64,000 nt of DNA, from positions 7,976-71,975 of the IMG/VR virus record IMGVR_UViG_3300045988_054550, one strand, 5' to 3'. This document shows positions 3,681-62,255 of this stretch, one piece after another. The stretch comes from a virus. A model generated the notes under the pieces. It searched no databases. It was given only the letters and a program-made list of their open reading frames with translations, and had not been told where the DNA came from. The stretch's first letter is position 1, and every line of letters begins with the position of its first letter. The position numbers were made by a program, and so were the translations under genes.

Positions 3681-5063
3681 TTATCCAAATGCTACCTGCC
3701 CATTATTCTGCATGTAAATCATCGGCGCAGCTTTTCGCTCTCCGACTTTCAGATACGGGCAATTAGCTTTCACAAGTGCTTCTGCCATAACCGGCACAAC
3801 GCTGTTTCCAATTCTCGCTACTTGTTTTGCAATCGGGTAATTTCTCCATTTATAGTCCCGATCAATAATGTAATCTTTTGGAAATCCCTGCATCACCTTT
3901 AATTCTTCCGGCTTTAGCATTCTGAGAAAAATATCTGATATGATGTATTTCTCTCCATGAATATCAACCAGAACGTTTACCAGTCCGAACCTGTCTTTTG
4001 TGGTAATAGTCCCTAGTGGCTCGTTAAGCACCTGTCCGCATCCTGTTCCATAATATTTGACCAAGAATGCAGATATCACGCCGAAGTGCCCGGGCGATGT
4101 GGTTATTGTATGGAGCGGTTCGTCACATCCTTGACCGATTCCGGTCTTGTAATACTTTGTAATGAATGCAGTTACAAGTCCGTATCTGTTTGAGGTATCA
4201 ATGGTTTTTATCGGTTCAGTCAGCAATTGTCCTCTGGAATCACCTTGTCTGGTTTCTCCATGATACTGAATGATAAATGCCAATGCATCTTTGTTCTTTA
4301 CAATGTACGGTTCTGGATTATCGACGATATATTTTTTGATTCCATTTGCAATGCGCTTCTGTGTTGCTTCTGCCAGTGGTTTCGGACGGTCAAATATACT
4401 TTTACCTAAGTCTGACCAATCAATGTAATCTCCGCATTGCTCGTATGGCTTCAGACCGTCTGTCCCAAAACGATTATGTGTAGGCTTTGGCCATACTATC
4501 TGCTTTCCATCCATACGAAACACTGCGTACCACCTTTTTCGTGTCGTTGGTGCTCCATAATCTGCCGCTACTAATTCCCGGCTATCAAATTCATAGCCAA
4601 TGGATTTCATAGCTGCTATGAATTTGTTATAGTCTTCACCTGCTCTGCTCTTAATTGGCTTTCCTGACTCATCCAGAGGCCCACACTGCTGTATCTCCTC
4701 TACATTTTCCATAATGATTACATCTGGAAGAATCGCCTTTGCGTGCTTATATACAGCCCACGGAAGAATGCGAAGCCCCTGCTTTCTCGGCTGACCTCCT
4801 TTTGCTTTTGAATGGCTCGTACAATCCGGGGAAGCCCACATCAACGCTACGTGCTGGTTTCCGACATATTTCTGCAAGTCTACTTTGAAAATATCTTCTG
4901 TCAGATGCAGTGTTCCAGGGTGATTCGTCTTGTGCATCAGGATAGCGTCAGGGTCGTGATTGATTGCTATATCTACTGATCTGCCGAGCGCCATCTCAAT
5001 TCCTACTGAAGCGCCACCTCCGCCTCAGCCTGCGAAACAATCAATTATTAACTGTTTCTGCAT
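3681..5063 (-). pseudogene. DNA (cytosine-5)-methyltransferase interrupted by in-frame TGA (5025-5027) inside motif I
   Basis: Motif IV-like SPDCTSHSKAKGG and motif VI IMENV are present. Upstream in the same frame: ATG 5061-5063, MQKQLIIDCFAG-TGA-GGGGASVGIEMALGR, which is the AdoMet-binding FxGxG motif. The tracked ORF (3681..4994) would lack motif I. Confidence 0.75.
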
Positions 5064-6636: not shown

Positions 6637-6753
6637 GATACCACTATGATACCACTATGATACCATTTCAACACCTATATTGCAAGATAAAATGGTATCA
6701 CTTTGGTATCACTTTGGCATCTAATTGACACCGATAGACAAAAATGCTACAAT
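6637..6753. promoter_or_regulatory. operator array (3 direct + 3 inverted GATACCA-type repeats) plus TTGACA-17-TACAAT promoter
   Basis: gataccactat x2 plus gataccattt at 6637-6669. Inverted ggtatcacttt x2 plus ggcatc at 6694-6721. TTGACA at 6725-6730 and TACAAT at 6748-6753. Confidence 0.7.
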
Positions 6754-6780
6754 GTTCTAAAAACAAGGGAGGGATTTCAT

Positions 6781-6933
6781 ATGGCTAGCAATTCTGATAA
6801 GACCAGAACTAATATCACGTTCCCGATACAGCTCAAAGAACAACTTGAGCAGATTGCCAAGCAGGAGAACAGAAGTTTCAATAATCTGGTTATTACCATT
6901 CTCCAAGATTTTGTAAAAAGTGCCGATAAATAG
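6781..6933 (+). CDS. ribbon-helix-helix (CopG/Arc-like) repressor
   Basis: 50 aa. TNITFPIQLKEQLEQIAKQENRSFNNLVITIL has the typical RHH beta-alpha-alpha pattern. Sits downstream of a consensus promoter. Confidence 0.65.
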   Translation: MASNSDKTRTNITFPIQLKEQLEQIAKQENRSFNNLVITILQDFVKSADK

Positions 6934-7292: not shown

Positions 7293-8030
7293 TCAAAACG
7301 GGCATAAATTCAAATCAACATCCAGTCCCGGTCTTGCGATCTGCACCAGAACATCATCTCCTGCAACGTCCTGTATCTCTTTCTGCATCACTTCCGGATT
7401 CCCCCATCCCTCTGACAGGTGACATAGCGTTATAGTCCTGAGCGAAGCGGTCTTGTTCACTCGAATAATCTCTTTTACAGTAGATAAACTGCTGTGCCCC
7501 CGGATGGAGTGTTCAAACTTAAACGAATCCTGTTCTGGCGATTCGTCCAGATGATTGCATTCTATAAGGAAGTGATTTATTCTCATGTTCTTAAATGTGA
7601 ACGGCAAATATGAGAAGTCTGTCGCATATATCAGTCGCCCGCATTCCTCATGCGATATCAGGTACGCGAAGTTTGGTGTATTGTCGTGTGGGACGTAGAA
7701 CGGCGTTACCCGGAACGAACCTATGTCTTTTGGTTTCTTTTCTGGCAATCCGATCATCAGCTCCCCAGAGATTGCGTTTACGCTCTCAACCGTCTCGTCA
7801 TTGGTGTAAATCTGAATACCGGACTGCATAAGATTCTGAAATGATTTCAGGTGATCTCCGTGTCCATGGGTCAGCAGACAGCCCGAAACATCTGATATCC
7901 TATAAGAAATTCCTTTTAAAATCTCTGAATACTTGCATCCACAATCCAAAAGCAAGATTTCGCCGGATTCGGTCTTGAGCGTATAGCAGTTTCCGAGTTG
8001 ACTGCCTGTGTTTATCACTCTCATGAACAT
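7293..8030 (-). CDS. metallo-beta-lactamase fold hydrolase/nuclease
   Basis: LLTHGHGDHL matches the HxHxDH motif. Sits next to the recombination genes. Confidence 0.75.
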   Translation of the reverse strand: MFMRVINTGSQLGNCYTLKTESGEILLLDCGCKYSEILKGISYRISDVSGCLLTHGHGDHLKSFQNLMQSGIQIYTNDETVESVNAISGELMIGLPEKKPKDIGSFRVTPFYVPHDNTPNFAYLISHEECGRLIYATDFSYLPFTFKNMRINHFLIECNHLDESPEQDSFKFEHSIRGHSSLSTVKEIIRVNKTASLRTITLCHLSEGWGNPEVMQKEIQDVAGDDVLVQIARPGLDVDLNLCPF

Positions 8031-51840: not shown

Positions 51841-52483
51841 TTATTCTCCTTTCGCTGGCCATTCAAAGCCAAAATCTGAACGTTTGATTTTGCATTGTGG
51901 GATTCCATCTTTCCAGAATATAATTCCTTCCATATTGCGATTTCTCAAATATTCTCGGATGCCATCGTAAGTTCTAGGGACTGAGATTTCCAGTTTGCCA
52001 TGTGGAATAAGCGTATCAATTCCAAAATCGTACGGATTCCCATTGAAATGTTTTCCAACAGCTTCGTATGTGCCGCACATAGTCGGTTCCACAATATTTT
52101 CAGTACCATCCAGTGTAGTTACATTTACCTTTACCTTATTATCTTCAAGATATCTGTAATAAGCTTTCGCAAACCATTTATCTTCAGGTGCCGGATTTCC
52201 TAAATCAACTTTCACCCAGCATGGAAAATGTCCCGTAACTGGGTCTGGTTTATCCTGACACGAGATTGATCCAAGTGGGACTTTACGCCCCTTTTTGACA
52301 TTCGCATCATATCTTTTAAAAAGGTTTCCATCGGCAATCATGCAACAAGAACCATCCCATTTCACTGTGGCAGTTCCTTTTCATTCAAGAACCCACTCCA
52401 TGCCTTCTGTGACTTCCGGAAGTGTTCTTTTAACTCTATGTCCCTCAAATTCTCGTTTGAATAGTGTTGGTATTTTTTTTCAT
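51841..52483 (-). pseudogene. ATP-dependent ligase-like nucleotidyltransferase with A8 frameshift at start and in-frame TGA (52381-52383)
   Basis: Reading KKIPTLFKREFEGHRVKRTLPEVTEGMEWVLE-TGA-KGTATVKWDGSCC (KxDG motif I), GTYEAVG..GNPY, EGIIFW..CKIKRSDFG. The ATG at 52481-52483 is out of frame by one A of an A8 run. Confidence 0.65.
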
Positions 52484-55339: not shown

Positions 55340-55389
55340 TCCAGTGTGCCGACTTGAACGGCATAAATCTCCCAACGAGAAACACTGGA
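55340..55389 (-). ncRNA. tRNA-like minihelix / branched terminator (acceptor-like 8 bp stem + D-like hairpin + T-arm, no anticodon arm) followed by a U6 run
   Basis: Minus strand: TCCAGTGT TT CTC-GTTGG-GAG ATTTAT GCCG-TTCAAGT-CGGC ACACTGGA C TTTTTT. Confidence 0.5.
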
Positions 55390-55438
55390 ACCGTACGAAA
55401 TAAGAGAAAAAGATTCCAATGATTGCAGTTCATTGGAA

Positions 55439-55575
55439 TTGAAAAGGGAAGATTCGAACTTCCATGTACATCCCATGTCCAAAGACACATACTCACCCAT
55501 TAAGATGTACTATCCTCTGCGTCTGCCTTTCTATCGTATCGGGTTCATCACCGTCAATAGTTCCGCCACTTTTCA
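55439..55575 (-). ncRNA. oversized tRNA-like RNA (137 nt): 7 bp acceptor, type-II-like D-arm, canonical T-arm, expanded centre
   Basis: 5' TGAAAAG TG GCG-GAACTATTGA-CGG ... GGAAG-TTCGAAT-CTTCC CTTTTCA A 3'. The candidate anticodon hairpin TATGT-GTCTTTGG-ACATG has an 8 nt loop. Confidence 0.45.
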
Positions 55576-55607: not shown

Positions 55608-55722
55608 CCATATAGGAGGGGATTTCCACCCTTTTACTCTCATGCCGCCGGCTAAGGTCACCTAAGTTGTGGGTTTAAACCTATGCTACCACAATAGCGT
55701 CTACGTATTCCGCCACTATATG
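55608..55722 (-). ncRNA. oversized tRNA-Leu-like RNA (115 nt): perfect 7 bp acceptor, Leu-type D-arm, aberrant T-loop
   Basis: 5' CATATAG TG GCG-GAATACGTAGA-CGC ... TTGTGG-(16 nt loop with GGTTTAAACC)-CCACAA ... GGG-TGGAAAT-CCC ..CTATATG G 3'. Starts 3 nt after tRNA-Thr. Confidence 0.45.
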
Positions 55723-55725
55723 GAA

Positions 55726-55797
55726 TCGGAAAGGCAGGAATCGAACCTGCGACACATAGCTTACAATGCCATTGCTCTACCACTGAGCTACATTCCA
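55726..55797 (-). tRNA. tRNA-Thr (anticodon UGU)
   Basis: Hand-folded cloverleaf: TGGAATG TA GCTC-AGTGGTA-GAGC A ATGGC-ATTGTAA-GCTAT GTGTC GCAGG-TTCGATT-CCTGC CTTTCCG A. One U-U mismatch and a terminal U-G in the acceptor. Confidence 0.75.
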
Positions 55798-56088: not shown

Positions 56089-56160
56089 GTGGAACGCCCG
56101 GAATCGAACCGGAGACTAGGTTACTCGTCCCTATCAGCTTTCCACTAGCTGCACATTCCA
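56089..56160 (-). tRNA. tRNA-like gene with non-canonical anticodon arm (loop ACGAGUA, C33; G-A at stem end)
   Basis: TGGAATG TG CAGC-TAGTGGAAA-GCTG A TAGGG-ACGAGTA-ACCTA GTC TCCGG-TTCGATT-CCGGG CGTTCCA C. Acceptor, D and T arms are good. The anticodon loop violates U33 and the variable loop is only 3 nt. Confidence 0.45.
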
Positions 56161-56491
56161 CATAACCCGGAAACTCCGGGTTAGCAATATGTTTATCGTG
56201 TTATGCTTTCCACTAGGCTGTTTTATGCCGTGCCAGCCCCACGGAGTTGTTTTCGGATTTGGATATTAATGTCTTTGTGTATAACAACAAAACCTTTTAT
56301 ATGTCTCTTGAAAACTTCCTGTCCTCAATGCGCGCTTATTGACGACAATTTAACTCGGAGACTGTGTAGAACGGGGAATTATCTTCATCGAACAGGCTGT
56401 GCCGTTACACACCTTTCATAAAAATAATCCACATACATTCATTCAACAGTTTTTTCTGTCCACAAAACGGATAGACAGCATATGGAAGAAA

Positions 56492-57129: not shown

Positions 57130-57642
57130 TTATTCTGCAAAAATCCAATCATCTGCTAACATATCCGCCTGAGATGCAAGCCATCCCATCTGTACGCCGG
57201 ATGTTTCGACAAAAGCAATGGCTTTATTTCCAATCGCATCATGTTCGCAATTTACGATTTTATTATCAGCAGTTTTATACGAAATCCTGGTAGCAAGCTG
57301 AATGTACTGTTTCTTTCCGTTCCATCCTTTTCTTGCAACCTTGAGTCCACGTTTCATATATTTAATTGCATCTCCAAAAGAAAACTCTGATTCGCCACCG
57401 AGCACCGGGCAGTTTGTTTCGTCTGCAATAATCCATTCATCAGACTGCATATTCATAGTGGTATATTCGACCCTCTGAGTTTTCCTGATGTCAAGTAAGT
57501 CGCCCTGAGTATCGCTATCCTGTGGGCGGCACTGAATCATAATTGTTTCTTTTTCTGCATCCCAATACCAATATCCGCCCCATGATGGAAGTTTTACCTT
57601 CGCTCCCTGTTTCATAAGTTTAAATGCTTCTGAAAATTTCAT
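57130..57642 (-). CDS. tandem DUF2829 (Tad2-like) protein
   Basis: Two repeats: MKFSEAFKLMKQGAKVKLPSWGGYWYW...SDEWII and FSFGDAIKYMKRGLKVARKGWNGKKQYIQL...GWLASQADMLADDWIF. Confidence 0.7.
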   Translation of the reverse strand: MKFSEAFKLMKQGAKVKLPSWGGYWYWDAEKETIMIQCRPQDSDTQGDLLDIRKTQRVEYTTMNMQSDEWIIADETNCPVLGGESEFSFGDAIKYMKRGLKVARKGWNGKKQYIQLATRISYKTADNKIVNCEHDAIGNKAIAFVETSGVQMGWLASQADMLADDWIFAE

Positions 57643-61724: not shown

Positions 61725-62255
61725 TTAACGCATAGCCTGTTTTAAGAAAAATTCTAATTCTTCTTCGTAGTATTCTTTACAATATAATTTTACTTTTGCT
61801 TTGTACTTTTCTTTTACTTCAAAAAAATCGTTAAATTGAGAATTTGCTCGTTTTATATTTCCAAGCTCGTAAGATTCCACTTTGTGATTTACTTTGTTGT
61901 ATCCTTTTTCTGGATTCGTAGAATCAAACATTTTAATCGCCATGTATTCAAAATGTCTTAAATTATGGTCCTTTAAATACTTTGGCAATAGTTCAACCCT
62001 TGTTAGAGGATATGCAATAAATGAATTACCACTATCAAAATCTTTTTGAAAAGTACTTGATGAATGTTTTCCCTTTTTTAGACTATATAAATGCGCTTTC
62101 AATCTCTTACATATGTTTCTGGTTGAACCAATATATACTTTTTGATTGTCCATATTTACAATTATATAGACACCTGGGAAATCAGAATTTTCATTAATCC
62201 TAAATTGTTCTGTTTTCACTGTAACCACTTCCTTTCTATGGTTACAGTATATCAT
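61725..62255 (-). CDS. GIY-YIG nuclease
   Basis: FPGVYIIVNMDNQKVYIGSTRNICKRLKAH is a canonical GIY-(10)-YIG motif. Confidence 0.75.
   Translation of the reverse strand: MIYCNHRKEVVTVKTEQFRINENSDFPGVYIIVNMDNQKVYIGSTRNICKRLKAHLYSLKKGKHSSSTFQKDFDSGNSFIAYPLTRVELLPKYLKDHNLRHFEYMAIKMFDSTNPEKGYNKVNHKVESYELGNIKRANSQFNDFFEVKEKYKAKVKLYCKEYYEEELEFFLKQAMR

Follow-up and report, generated by a model that had tools for sequence, protein, structure and literature searches.

We analysed a viral DNA window of 64,000 nucleotides (the whole stretch under study), in which a 115-nt tRNA-Leu-like element occupies the minus strand at 55722..55608. The element sits in a tRNA slot. Its immediate upstream neighbour is a canonical tRNA-Thr(UGU) (55726..55797, minus strand; called by ARAGORN, Rfam tRNA score 59.8 bits), which ends at 55726 and leaves a spacer of 3 nt (UUC), the distance already given in the initial annotation. 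On the other side lies a second tandem tRNA-Leu-like element, C (55442..55573, minus strand), and beyond this tandem copy an intrinsic-terminator-like hairpin of 10 bp with a U run (55405..55439, minus strand) closes the tRNA/tRNA-like unit. A mini tRNA-like hairpin, D (55341..55391, minus strand), follows, and then another U run.

Element C has an acceptor stem UGAAAAG/CUUUUCA, a hairpin of approximately 30 nt within its D loop, a closing stem GUACAUC/GAUGUAC, the 'AU' dinucleotide and a canonical T arm (GGAAG-UUCGAAU-CUUCC). Its D-loop insertion site is that of L278, L315, L348 and L352, the insert shows compensatory G→A and C→U changes in L001 and others, and C diverges by 3.7% per site, against 30–40% in the flanks. 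Hairpin D combines a small D-like hairpin with an acceptor UCCAGUG/CACUGGA and a T arm GCCG-UUCAAGU-CGGC; it resembles the hairpin that follows the related element of phage SPP1, which is tRNA-like too but is listed there as a 'terminator'. A link between the element and an RLIG1-like RNA ligase gene was also considered.

Read on the minus strand, the element begins with the acceptor-stem 5′ strand CAUAUAG (RNA positions 1–7; 55716..55722), followed by U8, G9 and a D arm of tRNA-Leu type, GCGG-AAUACGUAGA-CGC (55697..55715, the D arm proper at 55713–55697), whose D-loop base N1 is C18 in RNA numbering (55705). The variable core (RNA 27–81; 55642..55696) ends 3′ in CAU. The T arm (55616..55641) has a 6-bp stem, GAG and GGG pairing with CCC and CUC, and a T loop UGGAAAU (55628–55622) in which base N2 is G97. 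The acceptor-stem 3′ strand CUAUAUG (RNA 108–114; 55615–55609) and a G at the discriminator position (55608) complete the element (55608..55615), with no CCA encoded at the 3′ end. The perfect pairing of CAUAUAG (55722–55716) with CUAUAUG and the near-tRNA-Leu D arm claimed in the initial annotation were both borne out, and the terminal helix can be extended to 9 bp (UC...GA). A 7-nt bulge, AGUAAAA, splits the T stem of the window copy; it is lineage-specific, and in the close relative L035 the stem (GAUAGG/CCUAUC) runs uninterrupted.

The core contains an optional hairpin, in which UUGUGG (55694–55689) and CCACAA (55672–55667) are able to close a 16-nt loop, together with the motif AUAGGUUUAAAC and the palindromes GGUUUAAACC (55681–55672) and GCCGGC. 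The first palindrome and the change of GCCGGC to GUCGAC prompted the idea of a homodimer; palindromes of such size are not a general trait of its relatives. Folded as a single sequence, the element had an unremarkable MFE z-score of −0.44, and its core has competing folds. As far as sequence goes, what lifts the element above chance is comparison rather than any property of the single copy.

Standard tools did not recognise the element. ARAGORN made no call on it at default settings, whether introns were allowed or not, and Rfam 15 returned no match over 55608–55722 at E ≤ 10. No Rfam family fell on the element in nine related loci either (L005, L016, L019, L029, L039, SPP1, EFDG1, Lenus and BtpYZU01), and the tmRNA, YrlA, ROOL and GOLLD models matched neither the window copy nor the element in any scanned member. 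The tmRNA match in EFDG1 is a gene adjoining the element, not the element itself. We counted as a tRNA anything at or above the RF00005 gathering threshold (29 bits) or called by ARAGORN, and the element was neither. It lacks a tRNA anticodon arm (5-bp stem, 7-nt loop, U33), the sole candidate being the 6-bp stem with a 16-nt loop, and it lacks the elbow bases U54-Psi55-C56-R57-A58 and G18/G19, having UGGAAAU as its T loop and AAUACGUAGA as its D loop. A scaffold-only covariance model (R1) mis-threaded the element because of its long core insert and was not taken as a membership test.

Exact-word scans identified over 150 distinct relatives, some in phage contigs and others in cultured Firmicutes phages. 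A D-arm seed found 42 viral loci, comprising 35 close relatives and seven with distant members, a metagenome scan with the same seed added further members, and T-arm-only seeds yielded 24 and then 86 more distinct members. Cultured carriers include Bacillus phages SPP1 and Grass/BSP9/BSP10, Enterococcus EFDG1 and Lactobacillus Lenus, as well as BtpYZU01, VEsP-1, WC29P3 (Weissella) and TMW 1.1386 P1. The carriers are temperate and virulent Firmicutes phages, and the viromes are from gut, rumen and environmental sources. A representative-genome scan with the ACG-type D arm gave chance coding matches only, which does not imply that cells lack the family; the commoner AGG/UGC type lies outside that pattern, and at least one record derived from a prophage carries it (TMW 1.1386 P1, whose virions came from an induced lysate). 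The family is not described in the full-text literature searched, and the SPP1 genome paper makes no mention of it. In SPP1, where the element lies at about 6645–6765 of NC_004166, 'gene 10' is a dubious ORF overlapping it, and Bacillus phages SPG24 and BSTP3 have 'hypothetical protein' calls under the family match.

All relatives have the 7-bp acceptor stem, U8-G9, a D arm GNGG-AAUA...GUAGA-CNC, a 'YAU', a 6-bp T stem and a T loop U-G-N-A-A-A-U. The T stem ends in GG/CC, YAU precedes the T arm, and the T arm directly abuts the 3′ acceptor strand. The 5′ signature is present in the window copy as CAUAUAG-UG-GCGGAAUA (7-bp helix, U-G, G-N-G-G-A-A-(U/A)-(A/G)), and the 3′ signature, bulge apart, as CAU-GAG[AGUAAAA]GGG-UGGAAAU-CCCCUC-CUAUAUG. 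Members range from 75 to 379 nt, with inserts found in the core, the D loop and the T loop, and tandem copies with different cores occur in L143, L174 and L195. The element is a real, conserved member of a large and apparently unannotated phage RNA family. Relatives keep the same peculiarities and keep the acceptor pairing through compensatory changes, the opposite of what the initial annotation named as refuting it, and the element is not a pseudogene.

We examined covariation at several distances. Close to the window, the acceptor pair A2-U113 is replaced by G-C in L006, L014 and L035, and two T-stem pairs of L035 differ from the window copy on both sides, again compensated. Family-wide, both-side changes were seen at all seven acceptor pairs and at four of the six T-stem pairs. 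Paired cells made up 98.6%, compared with 31–50% when partners were slid, a percentage inflated by ascertainment because membership came from exact-word seeds and scripts that required pairing; this bias does not touch the controls with slid partners, the elbow test seeded from the T arm alone or the SPP1/Grass comparison. Among members found via the T arm alone, the D stem covaries (GCG/CGC, GUG/CAC, GAG/CUC). The SPP1 and Grass elements are approximately 84% identical by BLAST (92% mean column identity in a four-way alignment with BSP9 and BSP10), and five of their seven acceptor pairs differ, every one compensated.

The elbow covaries too. In the T-arm-only searches, a UGCAAAU T loop was accompanied by G at N1 in 65/65 uninterrupted D loops, while UGGAAAU was accompanied by C (four) or U (three), 7/7, and never by G. 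The window copy, with C at N1 and G at N2, is complementary in accordance with this rule, and L086 and L208 have G18/U55 with C19-G56. The T loop UGGAAAU that the initial annotation called aberrant is therefore present, but as a family hallmark covarying with the D loop and not as a one-off. The helices and the tertiary pair of the elbow are under selection; stem covariation and the N1/N2 pairing together show this for the L-shaped elbow. Across 32 close relatives, the element diverged by 1.9% per site, compared with 12% for tRNA-Thr and 30–43% for the flanks. Uncompensated changes do occur in the close relatives L003, L018 and L032, and with the bulged T stem they could mean that the window lineage is relaxing.

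The anticodon arm, by contrast with these retained parts, is dispensable. The region is a 23-nt linker in the shortest member and exceeds 200 nt in the longest one. The small members (75, 80 and 83 nt) have a linker alone or with one hairpin, and in others the core is swapped for unrelated hairpins. Relatives gave no covariation support for the UUGUGG/CCACAA stem, which is broken without compensation by G31→A (L003/L032) and C54→A (L018), and an alternative long hairpin fits the core variants about as well. Thus, the anticodon stem and 16-nt loop with its palindrome described in the initial annotation can form, but they are not conserved, and the arm region is freely replaceable across the family.

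Selection also acts on the structure of the core: L146 and L194 differ in their cores by a compensatory G-C to C-G change. One core is common to unrelated phages of one host, the siphovirus SPP1 and the Nitunavirus myoviruses, which suggests that core type may follow the host taxon more closely than the phage taxon. No k-mer or motif was common to all cores, UAGGUUUAA recurring in a subset only. The idea of UAG repeats forming a TRAP-like site was dropped, no motif being enriched across all cores. The core had no antisense targets in the 64-kb window, where 9–12-mer matches were fewer than in shuffled controls.

Members of the family lie 1–10 nt from co-oriented tRNAs, and about half of the first member set is inside dense tRNA arrays. 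Others lie directly after ArpU/RinA genes and ahead of HNH/terS/terL, with terminators following. These placements, like the membership of the window element, are direct observations. No conserved neighbouring protein was found family-wide, links being confined to subsets (ArpU/RinA, HNH, terS, terL, portal). Member flanks resemble those of the neighbouring tRNAs in having no CCA and AU-rich trailers, and U stands at −1 in 53% of members and 52% of real tRNAs. Position 73 is A in 57%, U in 24%, C in 14% and G in 6%, and −1 and 73 are paired in 55–61% of lineages, compared with 33% of 249 canonical tRNAs.

Bacterial or phage class II tRNA-Leu (RF00005) is among the closest known systems; the family shares with it the 7-bp acceptor, U8, the D arm GCGG-AAU.GGUAGA-CGC, A14, A21, T-loop U54/A58, a D-loop/T-loop elbow pair, the absence of CCA, a U-rich −1 and a location in tRNA arrays. 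It differs from tRNA-Leu in having no anticodon arm, and so cannot decode; in a T stem of 6 bp rather than 5; in G rather than U/Psi at 55 and A at 18; in a freely varying 19:56 pair (G-C, C-G, U-A or U-G); and in accepting large inserts at three sites (D loop, core and T loop).

Phage T4 species 1/2 (rnaC, rnaD) are alike in being small RNAs that end a phage tRNA cluster, are annotated as no more than 'small, stable RNA', a label that names no function, and they are co-transcribed and processed with tRNAs. In our own scan, T4 rnaC ends in an acceptor-like stem and T arm. Its T loop, however, is the canonical UUCGAAU and its 5′ end carries a long extension; CCA is encoded by rnaD, and the tRNA-Leu D arm and the family T-loop signature are missing from both. 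No sequence relationship to these T4 RNAs was detectable: when the entire tRNA region was compared with phage records by BLAST, nothing T4-like matched apart from generic tRNAs.

Partial tRNA folds are also known from YrlA, the tmRNA domain, mascRNA, gammaherpesvirus tRNA-miRNA hybrids, the P1/P7 C4 precursor and engineered scaffolds, where they recruit tRNA-processing or tRNA-binding factors or stabilise another RNA module. YrlA, a bacterial Y RNA, is permuted, so that its ends lie in the Ro-binding stem; tmRNA requires G3:U70, a coding region and SmpB; and eukaryotic tRNA-like RNAs depend on Pol III and tRNase Z. Engineered 'tRNA scaffolds' carry cargo in place of the anticodon arm, exactly the topology of the element family. 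To our knowledge, none of these other tRNA-like RNAs carries the family D-arm/T-loop signature. ROOL and GOLLD are phage or prophage non-coding RNAs of unknown function that cluster with tRNA islands (PMC12286853); they differ in measuring from approximately 580 to more than 800 nt, in not being tRNA-derived, in forming homo-oligomeric cages and in both being Rfam families.

Our preferred reading, to which we assign a probability of roughly 0.55, is that the element is a non-decoding, tRNA-Leu-derived phage RNA that is freed by the tRNA-processing machinery and acts as a stable RNA. From its ancestor it retains the acceptor helix, U8, both the D and the T arm, the elbow between D loop and T loop and, in 'YAU', a junction nucleotide of A15:U48 type. 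The elbow is rewired, with A18/G55 replacing G18/Psi55 and the 19:56 pair covarying freely, the 6-bp T stem gives a 13-bp acceptor/T stack, and a variable, lineage-specific hairpin module has taken the place of the anticodon arm. Transcribed in a tRNA slot, in the window as the next-to-last RNA of the tRNA array ahead of the terminator, the RNA would fold into an L shape, be excised by the host, whether through direct cleavage by RNase P/RNase Z or passively, when processing of its neighbours sets it free, and accumulate as a stable species unable to decode. It is plausible that RNase P and RNase Z process the element together with the tRNAs. These two enzymes and the one that adds CCA measure with a 12-bp ruler, from which the 13-bp stack and the frequently extended terminal helix depart; because of this and of the frequent −1:73 pairing, a direct cut at the foot of the 7-bp stem is not assured.

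We infer processing, stability and action in trans from these features, and the active part might be either half of the molecule: the tRNA-like half could act as handle or decoy towards a host factor that binds tRNA, or the variable core could be host-specific cargo on a tRNA chassis. More tentatively, the family may be a modular RNA chassis made from a tRNA-Leu gene, used as a trans-acting infection effector, decoy or natural 'tRNA scaffold'. A decoy would soak up a host factor or an immune nuclease recognising the tRNA body, and a scaffold would present host-specific RNA cargo. On such an account selection would hold the L-shaped top half and rewired elbow while three loops take arbitrary inserts, the acceptor sequence would be swapped with full compensation even between near-identical copies, and the variable core would move between unrelated phages sharing a host.

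A different, rather unlikely, account makes the element a cis-acting part of the transcript that punctuates or terminates polycistronic RNA, through RNase P/Z cleavage, by shielding the 3′ end of the RNA upstream or by controlling read-through at the next terminator, the excised piece having no function of its own. The element lies between the gp7/MuF-like and scaffold genes, just ahead of a terminator, in SPP1 and Weissella WC29P3; in BtpYZU01, VEsP-1 and TMW 1.1386 P1 it comes after the ArpU/RinA late regulator and before the packaging genes, with a terminator following; in the window a terminator comes after the 115-nt element (B) and element C. A cis role fits such positions within or at the end of mRNA units equally well, and the extended terminal helix would suit an insulated cis module. 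In dense tRNA arrays, however, real tRNAs already provide every cleavage site, and a cleavage signal needs no conserved rewired elbow, no structured cores shared by unrelated phages of one host and no tandem copies with differing cores. Decay or a DNA-level role scarcely seems probable. A degenerating tRNA-Leu pseudogene would agree with the bulged T stem of the lineage and the uncompensated changes in a few relatives, and a recombination or homing-endonuclease target with the GIY-YIG gene present in the window. Homing endonucleases can target tRNA T-loop DNA (SegB, PMC2330249). Both are opposed by RNA-level covariation in three helices and a tertiary pair, by conservation above that of the neighbouring genuine tRNA, and by the spread of the family over very different phages and habitats.

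Two further accounts keep the element closer to a tRNA. It is very unlikely to be an aminoacylatable tRNA-Leu derivative working outside decoding, as a leucine donor for non-ribosomal transfer or a sink for LeuRS or EF-Tu. LeuRS does not read the anticodon, the A15:U48 pair is the Levitt pair in tRNA, and the tRNA-Leu D arm, the U48-equivalent U and tRNA-like flanks are retained; the commoner subfamily keeps a canonical G19:C56, and A is the commonest base at 73 in the UGCAAAU subfamily (29/51). Yet 73 is not conserved, being U-biased in the UGGAAAU subfamily and G in the window, and is often paired with −1; G18 and Psi55 are replaced; and acceptor sequences vary freely, near-identical copies included. 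A 13-bp stack, which is an EF-Tu antideterminant in tRNA-Sec, also counts against aminoacylation. The other account is a decoding tRNA (Leu, Ser or suppressor) whose anticodon loop is enlarged or carries an intron. If 9 nt were cut out of the 16-nt loop, UUUAAAC with anticodon UAA would be left; the loop has U-U-U-N-A-A-C, N being A, G, C or U among close relatives, and the anticodon would then read UAA, UGA, UCA or UUA. ARAGORN at an 80% threshold with introns does draw a tRNA with exactly the element's ends, but this call stands amid numerous false positives from either strand, and the anticodon it gives is a different one. We know of no bacterial excision mechanism for such mini-introns, and harm would follow if the anticodon switched its reading among Leu, Ser and stop from one near-identical phage to the next. 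In relatives the UUGUGG/CCACAA stem carries uncompensated mismatches; elsewhere in the family a 5-bp stem with a 7-nt loop is missing, and some members are without any hairpin. This account is extremely improbable; because its anticodon arm is replaced by variable hairpins, the element is almost certainly not a decoding tRNA.

Stable but functionally obscure RNAs in phage tRNA clusters have a long-known precedent in T4 species 1/2, and ROOL and GOLLD are examples of remarkable RNAs that phages put beside their tRNAs. For the present family both the ancestry, tRNA-Leu, and the structural logic are clear, with the top half retained, the elbow rewired and the anticodon arm replaced. Its genes are missed by tRNA finders and Rfam, and they are present, unannotated, in SPP1 and Grass-type B. 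subtilis phages and in EFDG1-type therapy phages of Enterococcus; since these are genetically tractable systems, function is directly testable. A decoy or carrier role would bring an RNA-based strategy into phage–host conflict, and tRNA-scaffold engineering would have a precedent in nature. If the tRNA-Leu gene has indeed been turned into a modular chassis for a trans-acting effector, viral non-coding RNAs would gain a new functional class, one that model phages such as SPP1 carry.

The 115-nt element is read on the minus strand of the window (55722..55608), its 5′ end lying 3 nt past tRNA-Thr (55797-55726, −), the spacing given in the initial annotation. Other features described there were also present: the acceptor strands pair as CAUAUAG/CUAUAUG, U8-G9 is followed by GCGG-AAUACGUAGA-CGC, nearly the D arm of bacterial tRNA-Leu, and the T loop is UGGAAAU. 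Overlooked at that stage were a T stem in which GAG+GGG pairs with CCC+CUC (six pairs, interrupted by a 7-nt bulge) and a terminal helix extendable to 9 bp. ARAGORN and Rfam both identified tRNA-Thr, together with tRNA-Gln (56828-56757, −) and tRNA-Met (56564-56492, −); on the element, ARAGORN made no tRNA call, introns allowed or not, and Rfam 15 matched nothing at E ≤ 10. Its folding energy, computed for the single sequence, was ordinary (z = −0.44). By itself, the sequence of the element is unconvincing.

Homologues, which the initial annotation had proposed seeking, were found in phage, metagenome and cultured-phage collections. The exact D-arm 20-mer occurred in 42 viral contigs, 35 of them close relatives of the window's ~70-80 kb gut phage. 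The other seven (loci L005, L016/L024, L019, L029/L036 and L039) share the 5′ part, have an unrelated middle of 60-130 nt, and end in a T arm of the same type and a complementary 3′ strand. Adding a degenerate D-arm pattern gave ~30 distinct members across viral and metagenome collections, while T-arm-only seeds gave 24 (...AUG-NNN-GG-UGGAAAU-CC) and at least 86 (...UGCAAAU...). BLAST of the 5′ 34 nt of the element against cultured phages revealed unannotated copies in Bacillus phage SPP1, Enterococcus EFDG1-type phages, VEsP-1, Lactobacillus Lenus, Satyr and Maenad, Brochothrix BtpYZU01 and ADU4, Weissella WC29P3, Latilactobacillus TMW 1.1386 P1, and others; the SPP1 element as query added the Bacillus Grass group (SPG24, Grass, BSP38, SBSphiJ5, BSP9 and BSP10).

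Throughout the family, a 7-bp terminal helix leads into U8-G9, a D stem (G-N-G/C-N-C) with the loop G-A-A-(U/A)-(A/G)-N1-G-U-A-G/A-A, 1-2 junction bases, a variable core, the motif YAU, a 6-bp T stem ending GG/CC with the loop U-G-N2-A-A-A-U, and the 3′ strand of the terminal helix; N1 and N2 are equivalent to positions 19 and 56, and CCA is not encoded. Insertions fall at three sites: the core, the D loop past GGAAUA, and the T loop. The core ranges from a 23-nt AU-rich linker in the 75-nt member L371, through a linker plus a single hairpin in 80-83-nt members, to a few hundred nucleotides elsewhere. Hairpins of 15-95 nt are inserted past GGAAUA in L272, L278, L315, L322, L339, L348 and L352, and L102, L139, L019 and L195 have enlarged T loops. 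Because the core, D loop and T loop vary in this way, the anticodon arm lies outside the conserved design. The UUGUGG/CCACAA stem closing a 16-nt loop with GGUUUAAACC, initially annotated as an anticodon arm, can indeed pair, but is a single lineage's version of the variable core. One base of this loop varies (A/G/C/U) in close relatives and would read as the middle of anticodons UAA, UGA, UCA and UUA; we rejected that reading, which requires a 9-nt excision, lacks a family-wide fit and would be harmful. We know of no mechanism for such an excision.

The core of the window's copy contains palindromes at 55672-55681 and 55647-55652 (−). Most relatives have A or G at the centre of GGUUUAAACC, G still permitting G-U self-pairing, and GCCGGC is replaced by GUCGAC in L035 and by GUCGGC in L030/L031, recalling the covariation of dimerisation sites. 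These palindromes could hint at a homodimer or an alternative intramolecular fold, without generality in the family. The 9-mer UAGGUUUAA (55676-55684, −) is found again within the core or the 3′ tail in at least four independent members, against a chance expectation of ~0.02 occurrences; its carriers (the window, L035, L348, L363 at 2591-2600, and L364) include Weissella and Latilactobacillus phages, and it may be a functional site common to a subset of members.

The fold shows the marks of selection. An alignment of 26 distinct members, stripped of the core, shows two-sided changes at each of the seven acceptor pairs and at four of the six T-stem pairs, and 98.6% of cells are paired, compared with 31-50% when partners are slid by 1-3 columns, although the absolute 98.6% is inflated because the member-picking script demanded pairing. 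The D-stem test, the elbow test and the SPP1/Grass comparison were free of such selection. Members from T-arm-only seeds carry D stems covarying among GCG/CGC, GUG/CAC and GAG/CUC. With the T-arm-only seed UGCAAAU (N2 = C), N1 was G in 65/65 uninterrupted D loops among the matches listed; with UGGAAAU (N2 = G), N1 was C (4) or U (3), never G. The second copy in L143 has a U-A elbow pair, and L086 and L208, which combine G-C-G in the D loop with UUGGAAU, have G18/U55 and the reversed elbow pair C19-G56. N1:N2 corresponds to the tRNA elbow pair G19:C56 and covaries freely, with A18/G55 replacing G18/Ψ55.

Grass, BSP9 and BSP10 are 150-kb Nitunavirus myophages unrelated to SPP1, yet a four-way alignment of their copies with that of SPP1, covering the D and T arms, the core and 25 nt of upstream flank, has a mean column identity of 92% (84% by BLAST for SPP1 v Grass). 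Five of seven acceptor pairs differ between the two types, all compensated (AACACGG/CCGUGUU v UGUGUGG/CCACACG), despite conservation of the upstream flank and interior between SPP1 and L486-L488, the loci of the three myophages (alignment A2). This suggests that the acceptor helix is under diversifying selection or is exchanged in a targeted way. A possible core pseudoknot, CCUC/GAGG, has an extra pair in the Grass group relative to SPP1. A core-stem G-C pair is swapped to C-G between L146 and L194; core structure is, to judge from such changes, also constrained. In the window's own lineage, acceptor pair A2-U113 becomes G-C in L006, L014 and L035, and two T-stem pairs are exchanged in L035. 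Across 32 distinct relatives, per-sequence site differences were 1.9% in the element, 12% in tRNA-Thr and 30-43% in the flanks, the last due partly to mosaic replacement.

Covariation and conservation rule out a decaying pseudogene; the initial annotation had named, as outcomes that would refute it, an ordinary pseudogene with no homologues retaining its expansions, or acceptor pairing not conserved in relatives, whereas homologues exist and their acceptor pairs covary. A decoding tRNA was rejected given the lack of a conserved anticodon arm, the non-canonical elbow and the 13-bp acceptor/T stack, as were tmRNA, YrlA, ROOL and GOLLD, for which Rfam was negative. The window's copy is a derived family member with a bulged T stem. 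Its tandem partner is another atypical tRNA-Leu-like element, 'C' (55442-55573, −), which has a canonical T arm, a ~30-nt D-loop hairpin at the site used by family members with D-loop inserts, and a replaced anticodon arm closed by GUACAUC/GAUGUAC; 'C' is conserved in close relatives, compensatory change included.

About half of the first member set lies within co-oriented tRNA arrays, 1-10 nt from its neighbours. In Grass the element sits between tRNA-Asn and tRNA-Gln, and in EFDG1 it begins 2 nt past a phage tmRNA. That tmRNA is unannotated (2145-2495 in L360, the EFDG1 locus; Rfam, 140.6 bits) and immediately upstream of the family member; the same tRNA array has a weak, sub-threshold YrlA-like match (4068-4168, 28.4 bits). 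In three temperate-type Firmicutes phages the order is late regulator gene, immediately next the element, then packaging genes, the regulator being ArpU in BtpYZU01 (56 bits) and VEsP-1 (130 bits) and RinA in TMW 1.1386 P1 (94 bits). Directly 3′ of the ArpU gene, VEsP-1 (L365, 2067-2130) and BtpYZU01 (L362, 2225-2285) have three direct repeats (TTGGCGG ×3; ACGGAC-like ×3) and, after them, a −10-like box, plausibly an ArpU-dependent late promoter; if so, the element and the next tRNA would lie within the late-operon leader. In SPP1 and WC29P3 the element is flanked by the gp7/MuF-type minor head gene and the scaffold gene. The most frequent neighbours over 139 loci, putatively identified by reading representative sequences, were an HNH endonuclease downstream (21), a large-terminase-like protein downstream (15) and an ArpU-like protein upstream (12), with portal- and small-terminase-like proteins also among them; no constant protein neighbour was found across family loci. 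BLAST with the SPP1 element found no copy in other SPP1-like siphophages, and the element therefore acts as an accessory module common to one host's phages. To our knowledge, SPP1 encodes neither tRNAs nor RNA-repair enzymes; if so, any partner of its element is probably a host factor.

The acceptor/T helix, D stem, junction nucleotides and elbow are the parts of a tRNA read by processing and tRNA-binding factors, and these are the parts kept by selection in the family. U occupies −1 in 53% of members v 52% of genuine tRNAs of the same loci, whose AU-rich trailers and unencoded CCA are likewise matched. The simplest model would be an L-shaped, non-decoding RNA produced in a tRNA slot, released by RNase P/Z cutting the element or by processing of its neighbours, and then persisting as a stable RNA. 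Altered bases at 18 and 55, a sixth T-stem pair and the lack of conservation at 73 would presumably keep the RNA from T-loop modification, EF-Tu and aminoacylation. Positions −1 and 73 are paired in 55-61% of lineages v 33% among 249 canonical tRNAs (two independent sets gave P = 0.0008 and P = 0.004); this pairing and the 13-bp stack argue against an ordinary RNase P/Z substrate.

Within the model of a stable non-decoding RNA, the active part could be the tRNA-like half, as decoy or handle, or the variable core, as cargo. For cargo, unrelated B. subtilis phages have a core in common, some genomes have tandem copies with differing cores (L143, L174, L195), and related scaffolds bear differing cores (L029 v L176); for a handle, minimal members lack the core hairpin. 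The main rival is a purely cis role, in transcript punctuation or 3′-end protection at a terminator. A terminator is commonly found 3′ of the element (L363, L364, SPP1 and the window); we nonetheless consider a purely cis role unlikely.

Other tRNA-like sequences surround the element. A 51-nt 'mini tRNA', 'D' (55341-55391, −), has an acceptor-like stem, a small D-like hairpin and a T arm (GCCG-UUCAAGU-CGGC) followed by a U run. An analogous T-arm-containing hairpin lies directly 3′ of the SPP1 family member (6780-6824; ~1625-1675 in L359, the SPP1 locus), so that an element paired with a tRNA-like terminator recurs in the window and SPP1. The 2018 SPP1 re-annotation, which mentions neither a tRNA nor the element, enters only this hairpin, as a weak terminator of −5.5 kcal/mol (PMC6316719). 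A degenerate tRNA-like sequence, 'A' (56089-56161, −), has a good acceptor, a good D arm and a good T arm (UUCGAUU), but its 'anticodon' stem is of 4 bp and bears a 9-nt loop; it gave a weak Rfam tRNA-Sec match (20.6 bits), an ARAGORN tRNA-Leu(GAG) call solely at lowered threshold, and ~78% identity to DNA in another human-faecal phage record (H2). A 174-aa ORF 3.3 kb downstream of the tRNA region (51841-52365, −) matches the C-terminal two thirds of RNA ligase 1 (RLIG1; 30.3 bits); no adjoining ORF yielded the N-terminal catalytic part, so truncation, a frameshift or divergence of the gene is possible. A Tad2-like anti-Thoeris protein directly upstream of the tRNA region (57130-57642, −), an MBL-fold protein with weak RNase Z/Apyc1 similarity (7293-8030, −), a C5 DNA methylase (3681-4994, −) and a GIY-YIG nuclease (61725-62255, −) together suggest counter-defence and accessory cargo around the RNA cluster.

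RNAs of unknown function that are tRNA-like or encoded in tRNA clusters are already a known kind: T4 species 1 and 2 RNAs are likewise without an assigned function, and ROOL and GOLLD occur near tRNA islands (PMC12286853). No scanned member matched any Rfam family, and no description of the family was found in full-text literature. The family appears undescribed, its defining traits being tRNA-Leu ancestry, a rewired covarying elbow, a 7/6 stack, three insertion sites and presence in SPP1 and other cultured phages, and standard tools miss it.
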